NCBI GenBank assembly: GCA_965197525.1
Contig: OZ240211.1
Span: 1,312,001-1,376,000, forward strand
DNA from: Nitrosopumilus sp.
GTDB lineage: Archaea > Thermoproteota > Nitrososphaeria > Nitrososphaerales > Nitrosopumilaceae
DNA length: 64,000 nt
Direction of reading: 5' to 3'
A program made the translations under genes and the position numbers. Shown here piece by piece: positions 16,577 through 56,968 of the stretch (within the stretch, counting starts at the first letter, position 1; every line of letters starts with the position of its first letter). The notes beneath the pieces are model-generated. The model saw only the letters and a program-made list of their open reading frames with translations, did not search any database and was not told the DNA's origin.

Positions 16577-17724
16577 AAGACGTCTCTGACGACTTTCCTA
16601 AATCTGAGAAGATCTATCTAAACAACGCGTCTGTTTCCCTTATGCCTCTGAAAAGTATTGAAGCCATGAACGAATTTCTAATGACGTATAATTCGTTAGG
16701 TCCTGACTCAAAGGATGCAGGACCGTTCATCAATGAAAAACTACAAAATGTCAGAAGGATCATCTCCAAGATCATCTCCTGTCAGCCAGACGAGGTAGTT
16801 CTTACTCAAAGCACAACTGACGGAATTAACTTTGTAGCAAATGGATTATCCTTTGATAGCAATTCTAGTATTATTATTCGTGGAATGGCACATGAACACC
16901 ATTCTAATTTCTATCCCTGGATTAAATTAAAGGAAAAACAGATTTCCATAAAAAACTTAACGATTGACGATAATGGTTTTTTCAATTTAGATGATCTAAA
17001 ATCATATGTTAGTAATAATTCTAGTACAAAACTAGTTGCATTAAGTCATGCACTGTATAACACTGGCGCTTTGTTACCTGTCAATACAATAGGTGAAATT
17101 CTTCAAGAACACCACGTACCCTTCTTTCTTGATAGTGCACAAACTGTAGGATGTATAGACGATGCAAGCACATCAAAAATACAATGTGATTTTATGTCTT
17201 TTAACGGCTCCAAATGGCTTTGTGGTCCAATGGGTACAGGATTATTTTATTGTAGGAGAGAATCAAGTCACTTACTCCAACCAACAACGATTGGTGGTGA
17301 ATCTGGAATGGTTTACGACGATACCAAGATTGCATTTAAAGATCTGCCTGATAAATTTCAAACTGGTTTTAGAAATTATGTAGGAATTGTTGGATTAGAG
17401 TCATCTGCTAACTATTTAGTGAATTTTGGTATAAACAACATTCAGCAAAAAAACCAGCACCTCTCCAACCTTCTTAGAGAAGAGTTGATAAAAATTCCAA
17501 ATGTTACACTATATGGCCCAAAAGACAAAGATGACAGGACTAGCATTGTCTCCTTTAACATTAGAGGAGTCAGCTCCCAAGAAGTTGTAGATAGACTTGA
17601 AAAACAGAATATTATTCTAGCTGTAAGAGAGATCTTTGATCAAAAGATCGTACGTGCATCTCCGCACTTCTTCAACACAGAATCTCAAATACAAAAAACA
17701 GTTGATGCAATAAAACAACTATAG
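16561..17724 (+). CDS. Class V PLP-dependent aminotransferase-family enzyme
   Basis: YLNNAS, EHHSN, DSAQTVG, FNGSKWLCGPMGTG (PLP lysine), VRASPHFFN. Confidence 0.9.
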   Translation: MNIVSKDVSDDFPKSEKIYLNNASVSLMPLKSIEAMNEFLMTYNSLGPDSKDAGPFINEKLQNVRRIISKIISCQPDEVVLTQSTTDGINFVANGLSFDSNSSIIIRGMAHEHHSNFYPWIKLKEKQISIKNLTIDDNGFFNLDDLKSYVSNNSSTKLVALSHALYNTGALLPVNTIGEILQEHHVPFFLDSAQTVGCIDDASTSKIQCDFMSFNGSKWLCGPMGTGLFYCRRESSHLLQPTTIGGESGMVYDDTKIAFKDLPDKFQTGFRNYVGIVGLESSANYLVNFGINNIQQKNQHLSNLLREELIKIPNVTLYGPKDKDDRTSIVSFNIRGVSSQEVVDRLEKQNIILAVREIFDQKIVRASPHFFNTESQIQKTVDAIKQL

Positions 17725-17976
17725 ATCTTCTTGCTCTTCAATTACCATCATAGTCAAGGTTGACTGGACTTTGTTAATTCTTCTGATCTTATTTGTAATT
17801 ATTGCACGAAGATTCTCTCCGTTCTCTGAAGATATTTTTATAATAATATCGTATATGCCGTATATTCCCTGAATCTCAAACTGCACGTCCTCTTCTGAGA
17901 GAATCTGTTTTAATTCACTGATAATTGACTGGTCTGATCCCAAATCTGAATTTACTAATACATACGCAGTCGACAT
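17719..17976 (-). CDS. Lrp/AsnC ligand-binding (RAM) domain protein
   Basis: AYVLVN...GIYGIYDIIIKI...KIRRINKVQSTLTM; no HTH. Confidence 0.88.
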   Translation of the reverse strand: MSTAYVLVNSDLGSDQSIISELKQILSEEDVQFEIQGIYGIYDIIIKISSENGENLRAIITNKIRRINKVQSTLTMMVIEEQEDL

Positions 17977-19426
17977 CTAACAACCACATTTAATGACATT
18001 ATTTAATCCTTGATTACGGGACTTAAATACCTAGGTTACATTTCTGCACCAGAGTTTTTTTCTGACAGTCCAACAAATCATTCACAGCTTGGTTCTTGCC
18101 GTCTTTTTTAGAAACAACATGGTGTAAGCCATGTCTTGATTCTTTTGTCTTATGACGATAATCCCTACCGCCACTAATAACACTGACACTATTAGATGTG
18201 CCATTTTTATTAGCTAAAATAATATTTTCCATGCTGTCACACCTGTAGTTTCCATATCTGTCTACAAGCGGGAGCCTTCGTATGCACGGAAGTCCGTAAT
18301 GTCTGATGTTTGCGCCGGCGTTACCGTCTGCATCGCACAAAAATCCACAGCATACGCATTGAAACACATCCCTGGTGGTTCTAGAGTTACAGTTGATCAT
18401 ATTACACTTACTACACGTTATGCTGGTGTAGTGCGGAACAATCTCAAGTGTTTTGGTTCCATGGTTTTCGGCAGTCATTTTTATTCTATCCCCCATTCTT
18501 CCCATACCTGCCCCGTAAATCTCCCTGTTAAGACCGCTTTTCCACTTTTCATTTTTTGCAGTTATATTGCCAATGTTTAGTTTTTCCATGACTATCACTC
18601 CTGTTCTCATCACAATCTGTTTGGCAAGGAAATTATTGTGCTCTGTTCTTCTGTTGTTGAGTGTTTTTTTCATCCTCTTCAATTTGCGATCATTTTTTTC
18701 CATCTGTTACTATGCAGTTTGTGATCATCTCTTTTTGACTGTTGTTTTGAGATCACATCATCTTTTTTTCTCCTACAGGTATAAGGTGTCCTGTAAAAAT
18801 CGGCGTTTATTCCGTCATGAACTACTAGGGATCTCTTAACTCCCATGTCTATTCCGCATACGACTGTACAATTCATATTTTTAGGTCTCCGTATTTTTAG
18901 TGTCAGATGGATCTCAAACGTGCGGTTCGAATCGTTTGTATTGGCAGTGATTTTTTTGGTGTTCTCTACAAGCCTGTATGATACAATGTTGGTCTGATAG
19001 AATTTGCTAGTGCTGTTTTTGTCTCTTTCACATACCAGCTGCTTTGGAAGACTCTTCAAAGACGACAACAGCTCCACCTGGCCTATACTAGGCAGGTTCA
19101 TGTACAGTTTTTTCCACTTTCTCATCCTTAGCGAGGGATTCTGACCGTTTACTGTTATGGATGCATGCTTTGCATTTTTGGAGTTTCTGAACAAACTGTT
19201 TCTGTCAATCCATTTGTTTGGTTTGAGATTTTTAAATGACATGTGCCAGTTGTGGTTCTTACCCCCAGTCTTTTTTGCCCAATTTCGTACTCTACGTTTT
19301 TTTGCGCAGGATTTCAAATGTTTGTCTGCCGTATCATGCCCCTGTTGGAACGCAGTCGTTGCCACATTGGTGTGGTATCTGTTGCTCCATGGTATGGTGT
19401 GATGTATATTAGTAATGGCACGACTT

Positions 19427-20726
19427 CAGTAGTCGGAAATGTACTCCCTAAATCAACCAACAGACGTTCTCAATTATGTTAACATTCTTCGAACATACTG
19501 ATCTATTACCTACAGTGCCCTTACCCACCTTAGTGTTAACGCAAAAAGGTGGGCAGGTACACCACAATAAGATTGGAGAAAGGATACTTAATACCTTGTC
19601 AGGAATACTAGAGTCTGCACCCATAGGATTCTCTACGAGGAACAATGCCCAATACGGGGTAAGCGAGTTTGCAGCCATACTGATGAAGATGTCTGAATCC
19701 AACATAGCTTCTGAGGAGGCAATCCGGCTGCTCAAGCACGCCAAAAAGAGGATGCCGTCGCCCAAGTGGTTTCGCAACATGATAAACTCGCTGGAATCAG
19801 ACAGTGCAGACGAGCTCTGCACGGATATGATCACACGCACCGCAAGGCTTGCCAAGAATACGTGCCGGTACAAGGGGGGCGTACTAGTAGCAATAGATAA
19901 ACACCTGATACCAAGGCACGACAAGGACAACATGTCACATCTGACAAGATCCAAACCAAAGGGCGGTACAAGCAAGTTCGAGTGTTACGCAACAATGCAT
20001 GTGGTAGCAGAACAGGTTCCGGCCATTTTGGAGTGCATGCAGGTCACGCGCAGCGTGGATGACGCCGACTTTGTGCGTAAATTCGTCCAAAAACTCGTGG
20101 ATTACAGGATACGGGCCCGGTTGCTGCTGATGGACCGCGAGTTTTACTCGACTGAGATAATCAAACTTATATCAGAACACGGACGCAAGTTCCTGATGCC
20201 TGCAGTCAAGAACACGGGGATAAAGAGGATGATACAAGAGCATCACGATAAATTACGCAAGGCAGTCTCGCAGTACACCGTCAGAAACGCAGCAGGCCAG
20301 TCTGTCACATTCACATTGATAATCACACCCTCAAAAAAGATAGACGATCCTGATGTCAATACCACGGAAAGATATCATGTCTTTGCCACCAATCTTTCTC
20401 CTACCAAGGCACTAGACGAGATTGAGACGCTTCCGGAGGAGTACCGGAGAAGGTGGGGGATAGAGACAGGATACAAGCAAGTCGAGCAGGTACGCCCGAG
20501 GACAACAAGCCGCAATGCGTCGTTTAGGGTAATCATGTTTTACGTCTCGCTGTTCATGTACAACGCGTGGGCAGTGGAGCAGTATCGTGCAGATTCGAGT
20601 TATGATCGTGTGACTTTGGCACTTGTCGTATATGCTACAGCAATGGTTGCATTGGAATTATGTAGGATGGTGGGTCAACCGTATGATGTCGGAAAACCTG
20701 CCTAATGGGTACATTTCCGACTACTG
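19427..20726 (+). mobile_element. ISH3-like (IS4 superfamily) insertion sequence, apparently intact, 1300 bp
   Basis: 18-bp perfect TIR CAGTAGTCGGAAATGTAC (19427-19444; 20709-20726); 5-bp TSD GACTT (19422-19426; 20727-20731). Confidence 0.95.
19476..20705 (+). CDS. DDE transposase (ISH3-like)
   Basis: AIDKH, MDREFYS and YRRRWGIETGYK (YREK signature). Confidence 0.93.
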   Translation: MLTFFEHTDLLPTVPLPTLVLTQKGGQVHHNKIGERILNTLSGILESAPIGFSTRNNAQYGVSEFAAILMKMSESNIASEEAIRLLKHAKKRMPSPKWFRNMINSLESDSADELCTDMITRTARLAKNTCRYKGGVLVAIDKHLIPRHDKDNMSHLTRSKPKGGTSKFECYATMHVVAEQVPAILECMQVTRSVDDADFVRKFVQKLVDYRIRARLLLMDREFYSTEIIKLISEHGRKFLMPAVKNTGIKRMIQEHHDKLRKAVSQYTVRNAAGQSVTFTLIITPSKKIDDPDVNTTERYHVFATNLSPTKALDEIETLPEEYRRRWGIETGYKQVEQVRPRTTSRNASFRVIMFYVSLFMYNAWAVEQYRADSSYDRVTLALVVYATAMVALELCRMVGQPYDVGKPA

Positions 20727-21014
20727 GACTTGTCTTGATTTTGTCATATTTTTCAACCAGTCCTGTCTCTACTCCCATGTTGAAAAAATACGTCTGAAAA
20801 TTTGCAATCTTGCGTGCCTTTAATGACAATTCTTTTGTCTGCCTTGGTTTTACAATCACTGTTCTATAAATAAAATCTTCTATTTCTTTTTTCATCTAGT
20901 TAATAGTCTGTGTATTATATATAAGCGACGTGTATAATGTAATCCAAGTATGTAATTCCCTTGATTACCTTAAAATTGATTAAATACCACTTATTTTTCT
21001 ATACGTACATCAGC

Positions 21015-21659
21015 ATGCATCCACTAGATCTCTCCCTTACCATAACAAAATCAATTCCAACCTTTCCAGGTTCGCCACAACCGCAATTTATCCGATGGGC
21101 AGACATCCAAAAAGACGGATATAACCTTGAATTATTGTTCCTCAGCTCGCATACTGGTACACATATCGATGCACCATATCATTTTGTCAAGGACGGCCTC
21201 AAGATTCACCAAATCTCACTAGCTAGACTAGTTGGCAAGGCCATTCTAATCAAACTTCCCAAAACCAGCTCCAACAACGTTATAACAAAGTCCGATATTA
21301 TAGCATTTGAAAAAATCAATGGAAAGATTCCAAACAACTCTTCGATCTTCTTTTTTACGTCATGGCAAAAAAATCTGAAAAAAGAGAACTATTTTACTGA
21401 AAACCCCGGTCTTGATGCATCCTCTGCTAAATATCTAGCATCAAAAAAGATCAATCTAGTTGGCATAGATTCTCCAAGCATAGATGTTGGGCAAGATACC
21501 TCATACCACGCACACCACACTCTCTCTCGACATAATATTTTGATAGTAGAGAATCTAACGAATTTGGACAAGATATCTTCCATAAACTTTGATTTTGCAA
21601 TTCTTCCATTAAAACTCCAAGATGCAACCGGCTCTCCTGTGCGTGCTATTGCACTATAA
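21015..21659 (+). CDS. Cyclase family protein (kynurenine formamidase-like; ORF track start 20961)
   Basis: SHTGTHIDAPYHF, VGIDSPSID, IVENL, GSPVRAIA. Confidence 0.9.
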   Translation: MHPLDLSLTITKSIPTFPGSPQPQFIRWADIQKDGYNLELLFLSSHTGTHIDAPYHFVKDGLKIHQISLARLVGKAILIKLPKTSSNNVITKSDIIAFEKINGKIPNNSSIFFFTSWQKNLKKENYFTENPGLDASSAKYLASKKINLVGIDSPSIDVGQDTSYHAHHTLSRHNILIVENLTNLDKISSINFDFAILPLKLQDATGSPVRAIAL

Positions 21660-55419: not shown

Positions 55420-55567
55420 ATTTTAGCTGTTATAAAATAAAAACAGTTAGTTTCAGGTAATTTTATACCCGTAATTCAATCTCAAGTACGAAAAATTCCT
55501 TAAATTTTTGATAACGTGAATTCCATTTACGGTTTGATATGCCTTGTAATAAATGTTAAACATATTT

Positions 55568-56865
55568 CAGTAGTCGGAAATGTACCCCCTAAACCAACCA
55601 ACAGATGTTCTCAATTATGTTAACATTTTTCGAACATACCGATCTATTATCTACAGTGCCCTTACCCACCTTAGTGTTAGCACAAAAAGGTGGGCAGGTA
55701 CACCGTAATAAGATCGGAGAAAGGATACTTAATACCTTGTCAGGAATACTAGAATCCGCATCTATGGGATTCCCTACGAGGAACAATGCCCAATACGGGA
55801 TGAGCGAGTTTGCAGCCATACTGATGAAGATGTCTGAATCCAACATAGCCTCCGAGGAGGCAATCCGGCTGCTCAAGCACGCCAAAAAGAAGATGCCGTC
55901 GCCCAAGTGGTTTCGCAACATGATAAACTCGCTGGAATCAGACAGTGCAGACGAACTCTGCATGGATATGATCACCGCACCGCAAGGCTTGCCAAGAATA
56001 CGTGCCGGTACAAGGGGGGCGTACTAGAGCAATAGATAAACACCTGATACCAAGGCACGACAAGGACAACATGTCACATCTGACAAGGCCCAAACCAAAG
56101 GGCGGTACAAGCAAGTTCGAGTGTTACGCAACAATGCATGTGGTAGCAGAACAGGTTCCGGCCATTTTGGAGTGCATGCAGGTCACGCGCAGCGTGGATG
56201 ACGCCGACTTTGTGCGTAAATTCGTGCAAAAACTCAAGGGTTACAGGATACGGGCCCGGCTGCTGCTGATGGATCGCGAGTTTTACTCGACTGAGATAAT
56301 CAGGCTTGTATCAGAACAGAGACACAAGTTCCTGATGCCGGCAGTCAAGAACACGGGGATAAAGAGGGTGATACGGGAGCATCACGATAAATTACGCAAG
56401 GCAGTCTCACAGTACACCGTCAGAAACGCAGCAGGCCAGTCTGCCACATTTACATTGATAATCACGCCCTCAAAAAAGATAGACGACTCTGATGCCGATG
56501 CCACAGAAAGATACCATGTCTTTGCCACCAACCTTTCCCAGGTCAGGGCACTAGACGAGATTGATACACTTCCAGAGGAATACAGGAGAAGGTGGTGGAT
56601 ATAGACAGGATACAAGCAGGTCGAGCAGGTGCGCCCGAGGACAACAAGTCGCAATGCGTCGTTTAGGGCAATAATGTTTTACGTCTCGCTGTTCATGTAC
56701 AACACGTGGGCAGTAGAGCAGTACCGTGAAGATTCGAGTTATGATCGGGTAACTCTGGCACTTGTTGCATATGCTGCGGCAATGGCTGCATTGGAATTAT
56801 GTAGGATTGTGGGTCAACCATATGATGTCGGAGGATCTGCCTAAGGGGTAAATTTCCGACTACTG
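55568..56865 (+). mobile_element. ISH3-like IS, second and degenerate copy, 1298 bp
   Basis: Left TIR CAGTAGTCGGAAATGTAC; right TIR has one mismatch; TSD TATTT at 55563-55567 and 56866-56870. Confidence 0.93.
55617..56844 (+). pseudogene. ISH3-like transposase pseudogene
   Basis: Two 1-bp deletions relative to copy 1 (near 55975 and 56027) and GAG to TAG at the catalytic Glu (56602-56604). Confidence 0.9.
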
Positions 56866-56968
56866 TATTTTGTGTATGCACTCATGTCCAATGCAAATCT
56901 GGGTACGAATTTGCAAAAATTATGTCTTTGTTTATATGGGATCTGAGCCCACACATTTTTGCAGATTG

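Follow-up and report, generated by a model that had tools for sequence, protein, structure and literature searches.

The window analysed here is a 64,000-nucleotide stretch of the chromosome of Nitrosopumilus sp. (contig OZ240211.1, positions 1,312,001 to 1,376,000), an archaeon whose genome is represented by a single contig of 2.21 Mb (C1; 39.6% GC, 99% complete). Positions are given in window numbering unless they are preceded by C1 (window position 55556 = C1:1367556). An element at 18018-20960 is, by its ends and its footprint, probably (at a rough probability of 0.8) a dead non-autonomous insertion sequence (IS) of the IS1595 DDE family, with a TnpB nuclease and its putative guide-RNA scaffold as sole cargo. 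Such a TnpB-only element most likely borrows an IS1595-family transposase.

The element body is bounded by 25-bp terminal inverted repeats (TIRs), identical at 20 of 25 positions. In the orientation of tnpB, which is encoded on the minus strand, the 3' end is formed by the TIR GGGACTTAAATACCTAGGTTACATT (18018-18042) and the 5' end by the TIR at 20936-20960 (minus strand; reverse complement GGGAATTACATACTTGGATTACATT). Exact copies of the 8-bp target-site duplication (TSD) TTGATTAC directly adjoin both ends (18010-18017 and 20961-20968). By translation, tnpB consists of an N-terminal part of about 55 codons with an ATG at 20895 (20732-20895) and a C-terminal part of about 465 codons (18023-19421), with the stop codon (18023-18025) inside the 3' TIR. 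A TATA-like box, TTATATATAA (20915-20924, minus strand), about 25 nt upstream of the ATG, was read from the sequence as a putative promoter. Between the two gene parts lies a nested ISH3-family IS of 1300 bp (19427-20726, plus strand; transposase gene 19476-20705) with 18-bp TIRs, CAGTAGTCGGAAATGTAC, and the 5-bp TSD GACTT (19422-19426 and 20727-20731). Its transposase matched Pfam DDE_Tnp_1, and the best NCBIfam match was transpos_ISH3. After removal of the nested IS and one GACTT, the body is 1638 bp long and holds one minus-strand tnpB frame. This frame additionally carries a frameshift near 18690-18703. The window tnpB is therefore a doubly broken pseudogene, and the window copy is dead. 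The nested IS is a later insertion and not the mobiliser of the tnpB element; contigs from other samples carry the element without it, with a skip from 19423 to 20729.

A first-pass annotation of the same stretch had reported the 25-bp TIRs, the exact 8-bp TSD, a 1638-bp body with one tnpB open reading frame (ORF), its ATG, box and TIR-borne stop, and a nested ISH3-like IS with a different TIR and a 5-bp TSD. All of these were found again on re-reading. Its description of tnpB was accurate in layout but had overlooked the frameshift.

By BLAST, eight copies of the element were located in the 2.21-Mb genome, namely the window copy and seven more at 93-95% identity. The seven comprise four full-length copies, a copy interrupted by a 16.8-kb insertion, a 386-bp internal-deletion derivative (miniature inverted-repeat transposable element, MITE) and a truncated copy. 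Each of the other copies with both ends (6/6) bears its own exact 8-bp TSD (TAAAAAAA, AATCAATT, AATTCAAT, CTAAATCA, CTACTGAA, ATGTTAAC). Exact 8-bp TSDs of varied sequence were thus seen at 7 genome sites, and at 4 metagenome sites as well, and TIRs of 25-30 bp were present in every genome copy and homolog. The same 3' terminus was found in all genome copies, and its GGGRMTTAYATA tip is common to IS1595-family elements.

Occupied and empty alleles were compared at the window locus. The element lies between an Lrp/AsnC-type gene (17719-17976, minus strand; Pfam AsnC_trans_reg) and a putative cyclase gene (21015-21659, plus strand; Pfam Cyclase, 113.8 bits), both outside it. The two genes adjoin in 8 congeners; there, a spacer of about 70 nt holds the target site once and aligns to the window locus after removal of the element and one TSD. 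In a 15-kb public metagenome contig, 18007 is joined directly to 20959, and the 2951 bp skipped in this way correspond to the element together with one TSD. A further contig, of 10 kb, has the element at another location, with no nested IS in it. Repeated movement of the element is shown by the different 8-bp TSDs and the occupied and empty alleles, and the TIR/TSD pattern is far beyond chance. Two checks proposed with the first-pass annotation had these outcomes: further copies have the same TIRs with new 8-bp TSDs and lack IS605-type ends, and the relatives and metagenome contigs hold a single target copy at the empty site. Relatives with both TSD copies and no element, which it had named as a possible refutation, were not encountered.

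Three derivatives were recorded individually. At C1:33714-52173, about 16.8 kb are inserted 60 nt from the 5' end and the exact TSD CTACTGAA is still present. The protein-less MITE at C1:562158-562543 (386 bp; TSD ATGTTAAC) has kept 315 nt from the 5' end of the tnpB element but just 73 nt from its 3' end. A second protein-less MITE at C1:891809-891973 (165 bp) has the same TIR type and the 8-bp TSD TTTCATAT. The short MITEs derive from the full element by internal deletion.

Copies A-D encode an intact TnpB of 522 aa with the stop codon inside the TIR, and these four genes differ by 1.5-5%. The protein scored 110.5 bits on NCBIfam guided_TnpB (cut-off 100) and matched Pfam OrfB_IS605 (PF01385) and Cas12f1-like_TNB (PF07282); Pfam and NCBIfam returned TnpB modules only and no extra domain. 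The RuvC D-E-D residues (D248, E336, D422) and the CxxC..CxxC zinc-finger cysteines were invariant in 15 homologs. The fold signature of TnpB, RuvC D-E-D plus TNB zinc finger, is thereby present in the family, with the window copy itself broken. A family profile matched the structures of ISDra2 TnpB, a mimivirus TnpB-like protein and Cas12f. From these residues, TnpB is predicted to be catalytically intact in the four sibling copies. The TnpB core ends near residue 434, and an 88-residue extension reaches within 5 nt of the element end. An AlphaFold model of the 522-aa protein was poor (mean pLDDT 54, about 25-30 in the C-terminal extension), and no conclusion was drawn from it.

The DNA encoding this extension coincides with a putative guide-RNA region (18018-18247, minus strand), which overlaps the 88-aa C-terminal extension and reaches into the TIR. 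In the equivalent region of copy A (copy at C1:545581-547217), the last ~230 nt fold better than shuffled sequences (z = -2.9). RNAalifold on 8 diverse homologs gave 42 pairs, 14 of them with compensatory double changes, in a consensus structure derived from the same 8 sequences that were used for the covariation count. In this structure, 92.8% of cells were paired, compared with 30-43% in slid controls. Four-fold sites change less in the last ~230 nt than in the RuvC core. A metatranscriptome contig spans 18018-18203, the final 186 nt, and extends beyond them into flanking sequence, which is weak evidence from contigs only; depth differences among RNA contigs could not rank parts of the gene and give a weak hint at most. 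No match of the element to Rfam was obtained. Folding and covariation together suggest that an omegaRNA-like structure fills the last ~230 nt.

Candidate mobilisers were sought in the host genome. A search for Y1 TnpA (PF01797) gave no match either in the complete genome (2.21 Mb) or in any of four congeners, with positive controls recovered. In the complete genome there was likewise no match to serine recombinase (Resolvase, PF00239) or ISL3 transposase, and IS256 gave only weak cross-matches on IS6 genes. The absence of TnpA and serine recombinase, noted at first for the element, thus extends to the genome. The DDE transposases present belong to the IS6 and IS1595 families. An IS1595 transposase gene at C1:615175-616176 encodes a 333-aa protein that scored 154 bits on NCBIfam transpos_IS1595 (cut-off 75) and matched Pfam DDE_Tnp_IS1595 and Zn_ribbon_IS1595, with full-length alignment and a conserved D..D..E. 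On this basis it appears to be the best candidate mobiliser in the element's own genome. A tRNA-like 3' fragment (T-arm GTGGGTTCGAATCCCAC) was observed at C1:615040-615130, directly upstream of this gene.

From other genomes, 80 loci encoding relatives of the 333-aa protein were gathered, and the terminus motif was counted in them. Complete IS1595 elements of 1.7-3.6 kb (22 among the 80 loci) carry the TIR GGG[AG][AC]TTATATAC some 90 nt ahead of the transposase gene, with an inverted copy on its downstream side; 17 of the 22 have exact 8-bp TSDs. A transposon end in a congeneric Nitrosopumilus (L044) is identical at 24 of 26 positions to the 5' TIR of the tnpB family, compared with an average of 6.9 and a maximum of 17 matches among 20,000 random 26-mers. 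Besides a truncated gene for an IS1595 transposase, the L044 transposon carries an endonuclease VII and an N6/N4 methylase. In a Nitrosopumilaceae IS1595 element (L125; transposase 71% identical), the TIR is identical at 28 of 30 positions, by hand count, to that of a tnpB-only homolog (L098). A tblastn search detected tnpB in 0/80 of the IS1595 loci, and no transposase gene was found inside any tnpB element examined.

Because their ends and 8-bp footprint match those of IS1595-encoding elements, the tnpB elements are read as probable non-autonomous riders of this IS1595 lineage. With tnpB as the only gene, the element is non-autonomous. The 8-bp TSD of the family is present, and so are TIRs like those of DDE_Tnp_IS1595-encoding elements (the GGGRMTTAYATA tip, 24/26 and 28/30); a Zn-ribbon and DDE transposase is not encoded by the element itself but elsewhere in the genome. 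IS1595 was one of four DDE families named in the first-pass annotation, and the ends bear this one out. An autonomous DDE IS with the same ends, which was to be looked for, exists as the IS1595 lineage of other genomes; none is intact in the own genome. Two candidates were rejected as partners, namely IS1595 ISs of 906 bp present in the genus and the 284-aa copy of the own genome, their ends (GGTGATTRT) showing family-level likeness only.

Further IS1595-type loci were noted on the way. Autonomous elements of this family with GGGRMTTATATAC ends in bacterial metagenome-assembled genomes (L158, L130, L153) and in Nitrosopumilus (L044) carry restriction-modification-like passengers, in which an N6/N4 methylase is paired with a nuclease of HNH, Mrr-like, Eco29kI/GIY-YIG or endonuclease VII type. 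Many of the host taxa of such passenger-bearing elements are characteristic members of sponge microbiomes, a pattern suggestive of horizontal spread. At L045:937-1941 (congener G076), a 334-aa ORF is IS1595 transposase-like over its first ~230 residues and IS6-transposase-like thereafter, a chimera without the second D and E.

The association of TnpB with these ends was examined across homologs. In a maximum-likelihood (ML) tree, all TnpBs bounded by these ends fell on one side of a branch with support of 100/97, and the IS6-ended tnpB family of the same genome (100/100; described below) and ordinary TnpBs (97/95) were separate. Metagenome homologs at 42-55% identity keep the TIRs, exact TSDs and the TIR tip. 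Down to 42% identity, the tnpB stop lies in the TIR or at most 28 nt from the element end, and the ATG lies 38-118 nt from the other end. The same architecture recurs in three further TnpB lineages at about 30% identity; it was seen in a second family of the own genome and in additional lineages of three congeners. The second tnpB-only family is represented by C1:1984842-1986191 (1350 bp; ends GGGAATTATATA / GGGGATTATATA; stop 5 nt from the element end) and by fragments at C1:52607, 691037-691528 and 1871751-1871937. Since TnpBs with these ends form one deep monophyletic clade, TnpB and IS1595-type ends are taken from the tree as an old association and not a recent capture. The first-pass proposal that a DDE-moved non-autonomous cassette had captured TnpB consequently stands for the cassette, a TIR/TSD unit with tnpB only and IS1595-like ends, but not for capture as a one-off event. 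Distribution is patchy. The TIR type occurred in 4/141 genus genomes, and close TnpB homologs in 0/300 other genomes of the class. A search of genome contigs with TnpB, alone or as an alignment, yielded nothing useful, and a TIR pattern scan of genome contigs gave only three solo matches.

In the mechanism proposed, an IS1595-family transposase would bind the TIRs in trans, excise or copy the element and insert it into AT-rich DNA cut with an 8-bp stagger. Expression of TnpB would be driven by a TATA-box promoter lying immediately inward of the 5' TIR. The final ~230 nt, shared with the TnpB C-terminus and closed by the 3' TIR, would be transcribed as the omegaRNA scaffold, and the guide would be read from flanking DNA, as in IS605 TnpB and Fanzor elements.

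Several observations weigh against this account. The IS1595 element resident in the genome is incomplete. A right end was not found, and its left end (genome position 614150), which is only 17-18/26 identical to the TIRs of the tnpB family, is separated from the gene by about 0.9 kb of IS6-derived DNA. In both copies of the gene, a GGGGATTATATAC terminus lies about 1 kb upstream, displaced by such IS6-derived DNA. The own genome has no autonomous partner with GGGRATTAYATA ends, each such terminus being part of a tnpB element, of one of two MITEs or of a solo relic. PF12762 had no match in two congeners that carry GGG-type tnpB elements, and a third has only a truncated IS1595/IS6 chimera, though two of its tnpB copies are 99.5% identical. 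Mobilisation in trans is suggested by matching ends, and the omegaRNA by folding and covariation of 8 sequences from which the structure itself was taken. Inspection by eye of the 5 nt before each TSD revealed no conserved motif resembling a transposon-associated motif (TAM), and the usual homing role of TnpB is for this reason left without an obvious substrate.

Enzymes of another DDE family could move the element, e.g. those of the IS6 family, which are abundant in the genome, are encoded in 5/5 genomes with GGG-type tnpB elements and also make 8-bp TSDs; at three places, GGG-type termini stand directly beside IS6-type TIRs. We consider this quite unlikely, as IS6-type TIRs (GGTTCTGT) have only GG in common with GGGAATTA-type ends, the termini match IS1595-lineage elements over 24-28 nt, and the IS6-ended tnpB family forms a separate clade. 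Very unlikely is an autonomous element in which TnpB itself serves as transposase by means of its RNase-H-like RuvC domain, recognising the TIRs and inserting the element with an 8-bp stagger. It would account for tnpB being the only gene and intact in four copies that differ by 1.5-5%, for the co-diversification of TnpB clade and TIR type, for congeners carrying elements with no detectable intact IS1595 transposase, and for the 0/80 count in IS1595 loci. The same termini and TSD length, however, are found in IS1595 DDE elements without TnpB, which explains the ends without a new activity. Trans-mobilisation does occur, because protein-less MITEs of 386 and 165 bp with TSDs exist; moreover, those IS605-type elements that have been studied can transpose without TnpB (PMC13565253), and no domain beyond the TnpB modules was detected in Pfam/NCBIfam.

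The remaining alternatives concern the relation of gene and cassette. tnpB-only elements of IS1341 type are very common in archaea (PMC3119063, PMC10691335), and an ordinary IS200/IS605 (IS1341-type) or IS607 tnpB element might have entered an unrelated MITE to which the TIRs and TSD belong. This is hardly credible in view of the position of stop and ATG relative to the element ends down to 42% identity, the repetition of the architecture in three further TnpB lineages at about 30% identity, the origin of the short MITEs by internal deletion from the full element, and a complete genome without Y1 or serine TnpA. Entry of an IS1341 into an empty MITE had been listed beforehand as a possible refutation, and the stop within the TIR or at most 28 nt from the end across homologs contradicts it. 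It is also unlikely that TnpB is an exapted RNA-guided regulator or defence factor merely left on a mobile cassette. TnpB exaptation is documented (PMC10691335), no TAM is conserved at the insertion sites, and the ORF stays intact in diverged copies; on the other side, RuvC D-E-D and zinc finger are invariant in the family while known exapted forms are mostly inactivated (PMC10691335), and the gene is multi-copy and mobile instead of fixed at one locus. The reading of a TnpB-bearing IS1595 rider was retained.

Comparison with known systems was made from the literature. TIRs and TSDs are missing from IS200/IS605 elements, which depend on Y1 TnpA, and from IS607 elements as well (PMC13565253). 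Membership of the IS200/IS605 group (IS1341 subgroup) was rejected on the TIRs, the exact and varied 8-bp TSDs and the lack of Y1 TnpA in the genome, and membership of IS607 on the lack of serine recombinase (PF00239) in the genome and the presence of TIRs and TSDs. The first-pass assignment to neither group was upheld on all three counts, TIRs, TSDs and TnpA absence. IS1341-type elements and their PATE derivatives resemble the present family in having tnpB as the only gene, a 3' guide-RNA region (putative in the present family) and short protein-less derivatives, but share with IS200/IS605 the absence of TIRs, the absence of a TSD and Y1 dependence, none of which holds here.

DDE-borne TnpB is rare but already precedented in prokaryotes. 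Altae-Tran et al. 2023 (PMC10691335) described six DDE-associated TnpB branches (DDE-1 to DDE-6) with inverted ends as well as solo TnpBs that share those ends, and a 2026 review names ISL2, IS630 and IS1031 as their partners (PMC13565253). Like the present family, these branches have a prokaryotic tnpB between DDE-type inverted ends, with the tnpB 3' end at most 250 bp from the transposon end, and their solo copies are likewise presumed to be moved in trans. By the published descriptions they are set apart by their ISL2, IS630 or IS1031 partners and by tnpB and transposase standing in one element, whereas here the partner is IS1595, tnpB occurs only in non-autonomous elements and the host is a Nitrosopumilus archaeon. 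New here are the IS1595 partner family, the purely non-autonomous lineage and the variable TSD. No report linking TnpB to IS1595 or Nitrosopumilus was found in the literature.

Fanzor-only non-autonomous TIR/TSD elements in which the TIR is part of the guide-RNA scaffold were described by Yoon et al. 2023 (PMC10711439). Fanzor1 and Fanzor2* elements of eukaryotes and viruses, including that of a Spodoptera frugiperda ascovirus (PMC10711439), resemble the present one in a sole TnpB-type gene, TIR boundaries, TSD formation and a scaffold (putative here) running through the TIR. They differ in that here the host is prokaryotic, TnpB is of ordinary size with a canonical RuvC and the 8-bp TSD is variable. 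A variable TSD cannot be part of a fixed RNA scaffold, unlike what was proposed for Fanzors. The label Fanzor-like, as first applied, hence describes the arrangement but not membership, the host being a Nitrosopumilus chromosome.

The IS1595 family is related to eukaryotic Merlin and has TIRs starting with GG, an 8-bp TSD and a Zn-ribbon plus DDE transposase (PMC8101967). The tnpB elements share with it the 8-bp TSD and a TIR tip identical to that of IS1595 transposase-encoding elements. They differ from it by having no transposase gene and by their cargo of TnpB and putative omegaRNA, in place of nothing or restriction-modification genes. Some IS1595 subgroups carry passenger genes, and one subgroup has the end signature ggnnatTAT.

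A parallel exists in the same genome. A tnpB-only IS of 1.33 kb is present in about 35 copies (exemplar C1:635341-636672), with a perfect TIR of about 27 bp, GGTTCTGTTGGGTTAAC, and 8-bp TSDs. In one TIR sub-variant of this family, the first 18 nt are those of an autonomous IS6-family IS (C1:746475-748444, 1970 bp) that encodes a 378-aa SWIM + DDE_Tnp_IS240 transposase and has the 8-bp TSD CTATTGTG. This IS6-ended family is a precedent for DDE-borne tnpB in the same host, alike in tnpB as only gene, TIRs, 8-bp TSD and ends common to an autonomous DDE IS of the genome. It differs in its GGTTCTGT TIR, IS6 partner, separate TnpB clade, copy number and a stop about 40 nt from the end.

Other repeats were recorded as follows. 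In congener G280, a solo GGGGATTATATACGTGGATTACATT terminus lies in an IS6-type transposon of about 3.2 kb (L077:6951-7905 / L120; TSD CTGTGGCA); the other ORFs noted in this transposon are a small AbrB-like one and one for a membrane protein. Repeats make up about 401 kb (18%) of the 2.21-Mb chromosome, including 5-15-kb tracts with about 45-fold internal repetition in giant repetitive protein genes (e.g. C1:2025460-2034857). Within the window, a 1316-bp stretch at 55556-56871 (C1:1367556-1368871) with about 5 genome repeats is, by its size, probably another ISH3-family IS copy.

In current models, TnpB is a homing nuclease: once Y1 or serine TnpA has left an empty site without a scar, TnpB cuts this site again, recognising it by a TAM equal to the target motif of the transposase. 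A further-reaching proposal, which we hold to be doubtful, is that this archaeal TnpB clade has long lived as the obligate sole cargo of non-autonomous IS1595-type transposons, never co-encoded with a transposase and inserting without a fixed motif. If it were true, the omegaRNA-guided nuclease would have to do without a TAM defined by a transposase. Its TAM might then be provided by the TIR tip or be highly permissive, or its cleavage might have a purpose other than homing to empty sites, and the benefit of TnpB to the transposon would be independent of scarless 'peel-and-paste' excision.

With the present family, IS1595 joins the list of transposase families linked to TnpB. TnpB/omegaRNA modules that look active appear to ride DDE-type non-autonomous elements, of IS1595 and, in the same genome, of IS6 type, as a compact prokaryotic counterpart of Fanzor-bearing TIR transposons. 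The family also supplies a diverged TnpB clade of 520 aa with a defined candidate RNA region for genome-editing screens. It offers a system for asking what TnpB gives to a cut-or-copy-and-paste element, how guide and TAM are set, and whether a guide-RNA nuclease can last purely as a hitch-hiker on the enzyme of another transposon.

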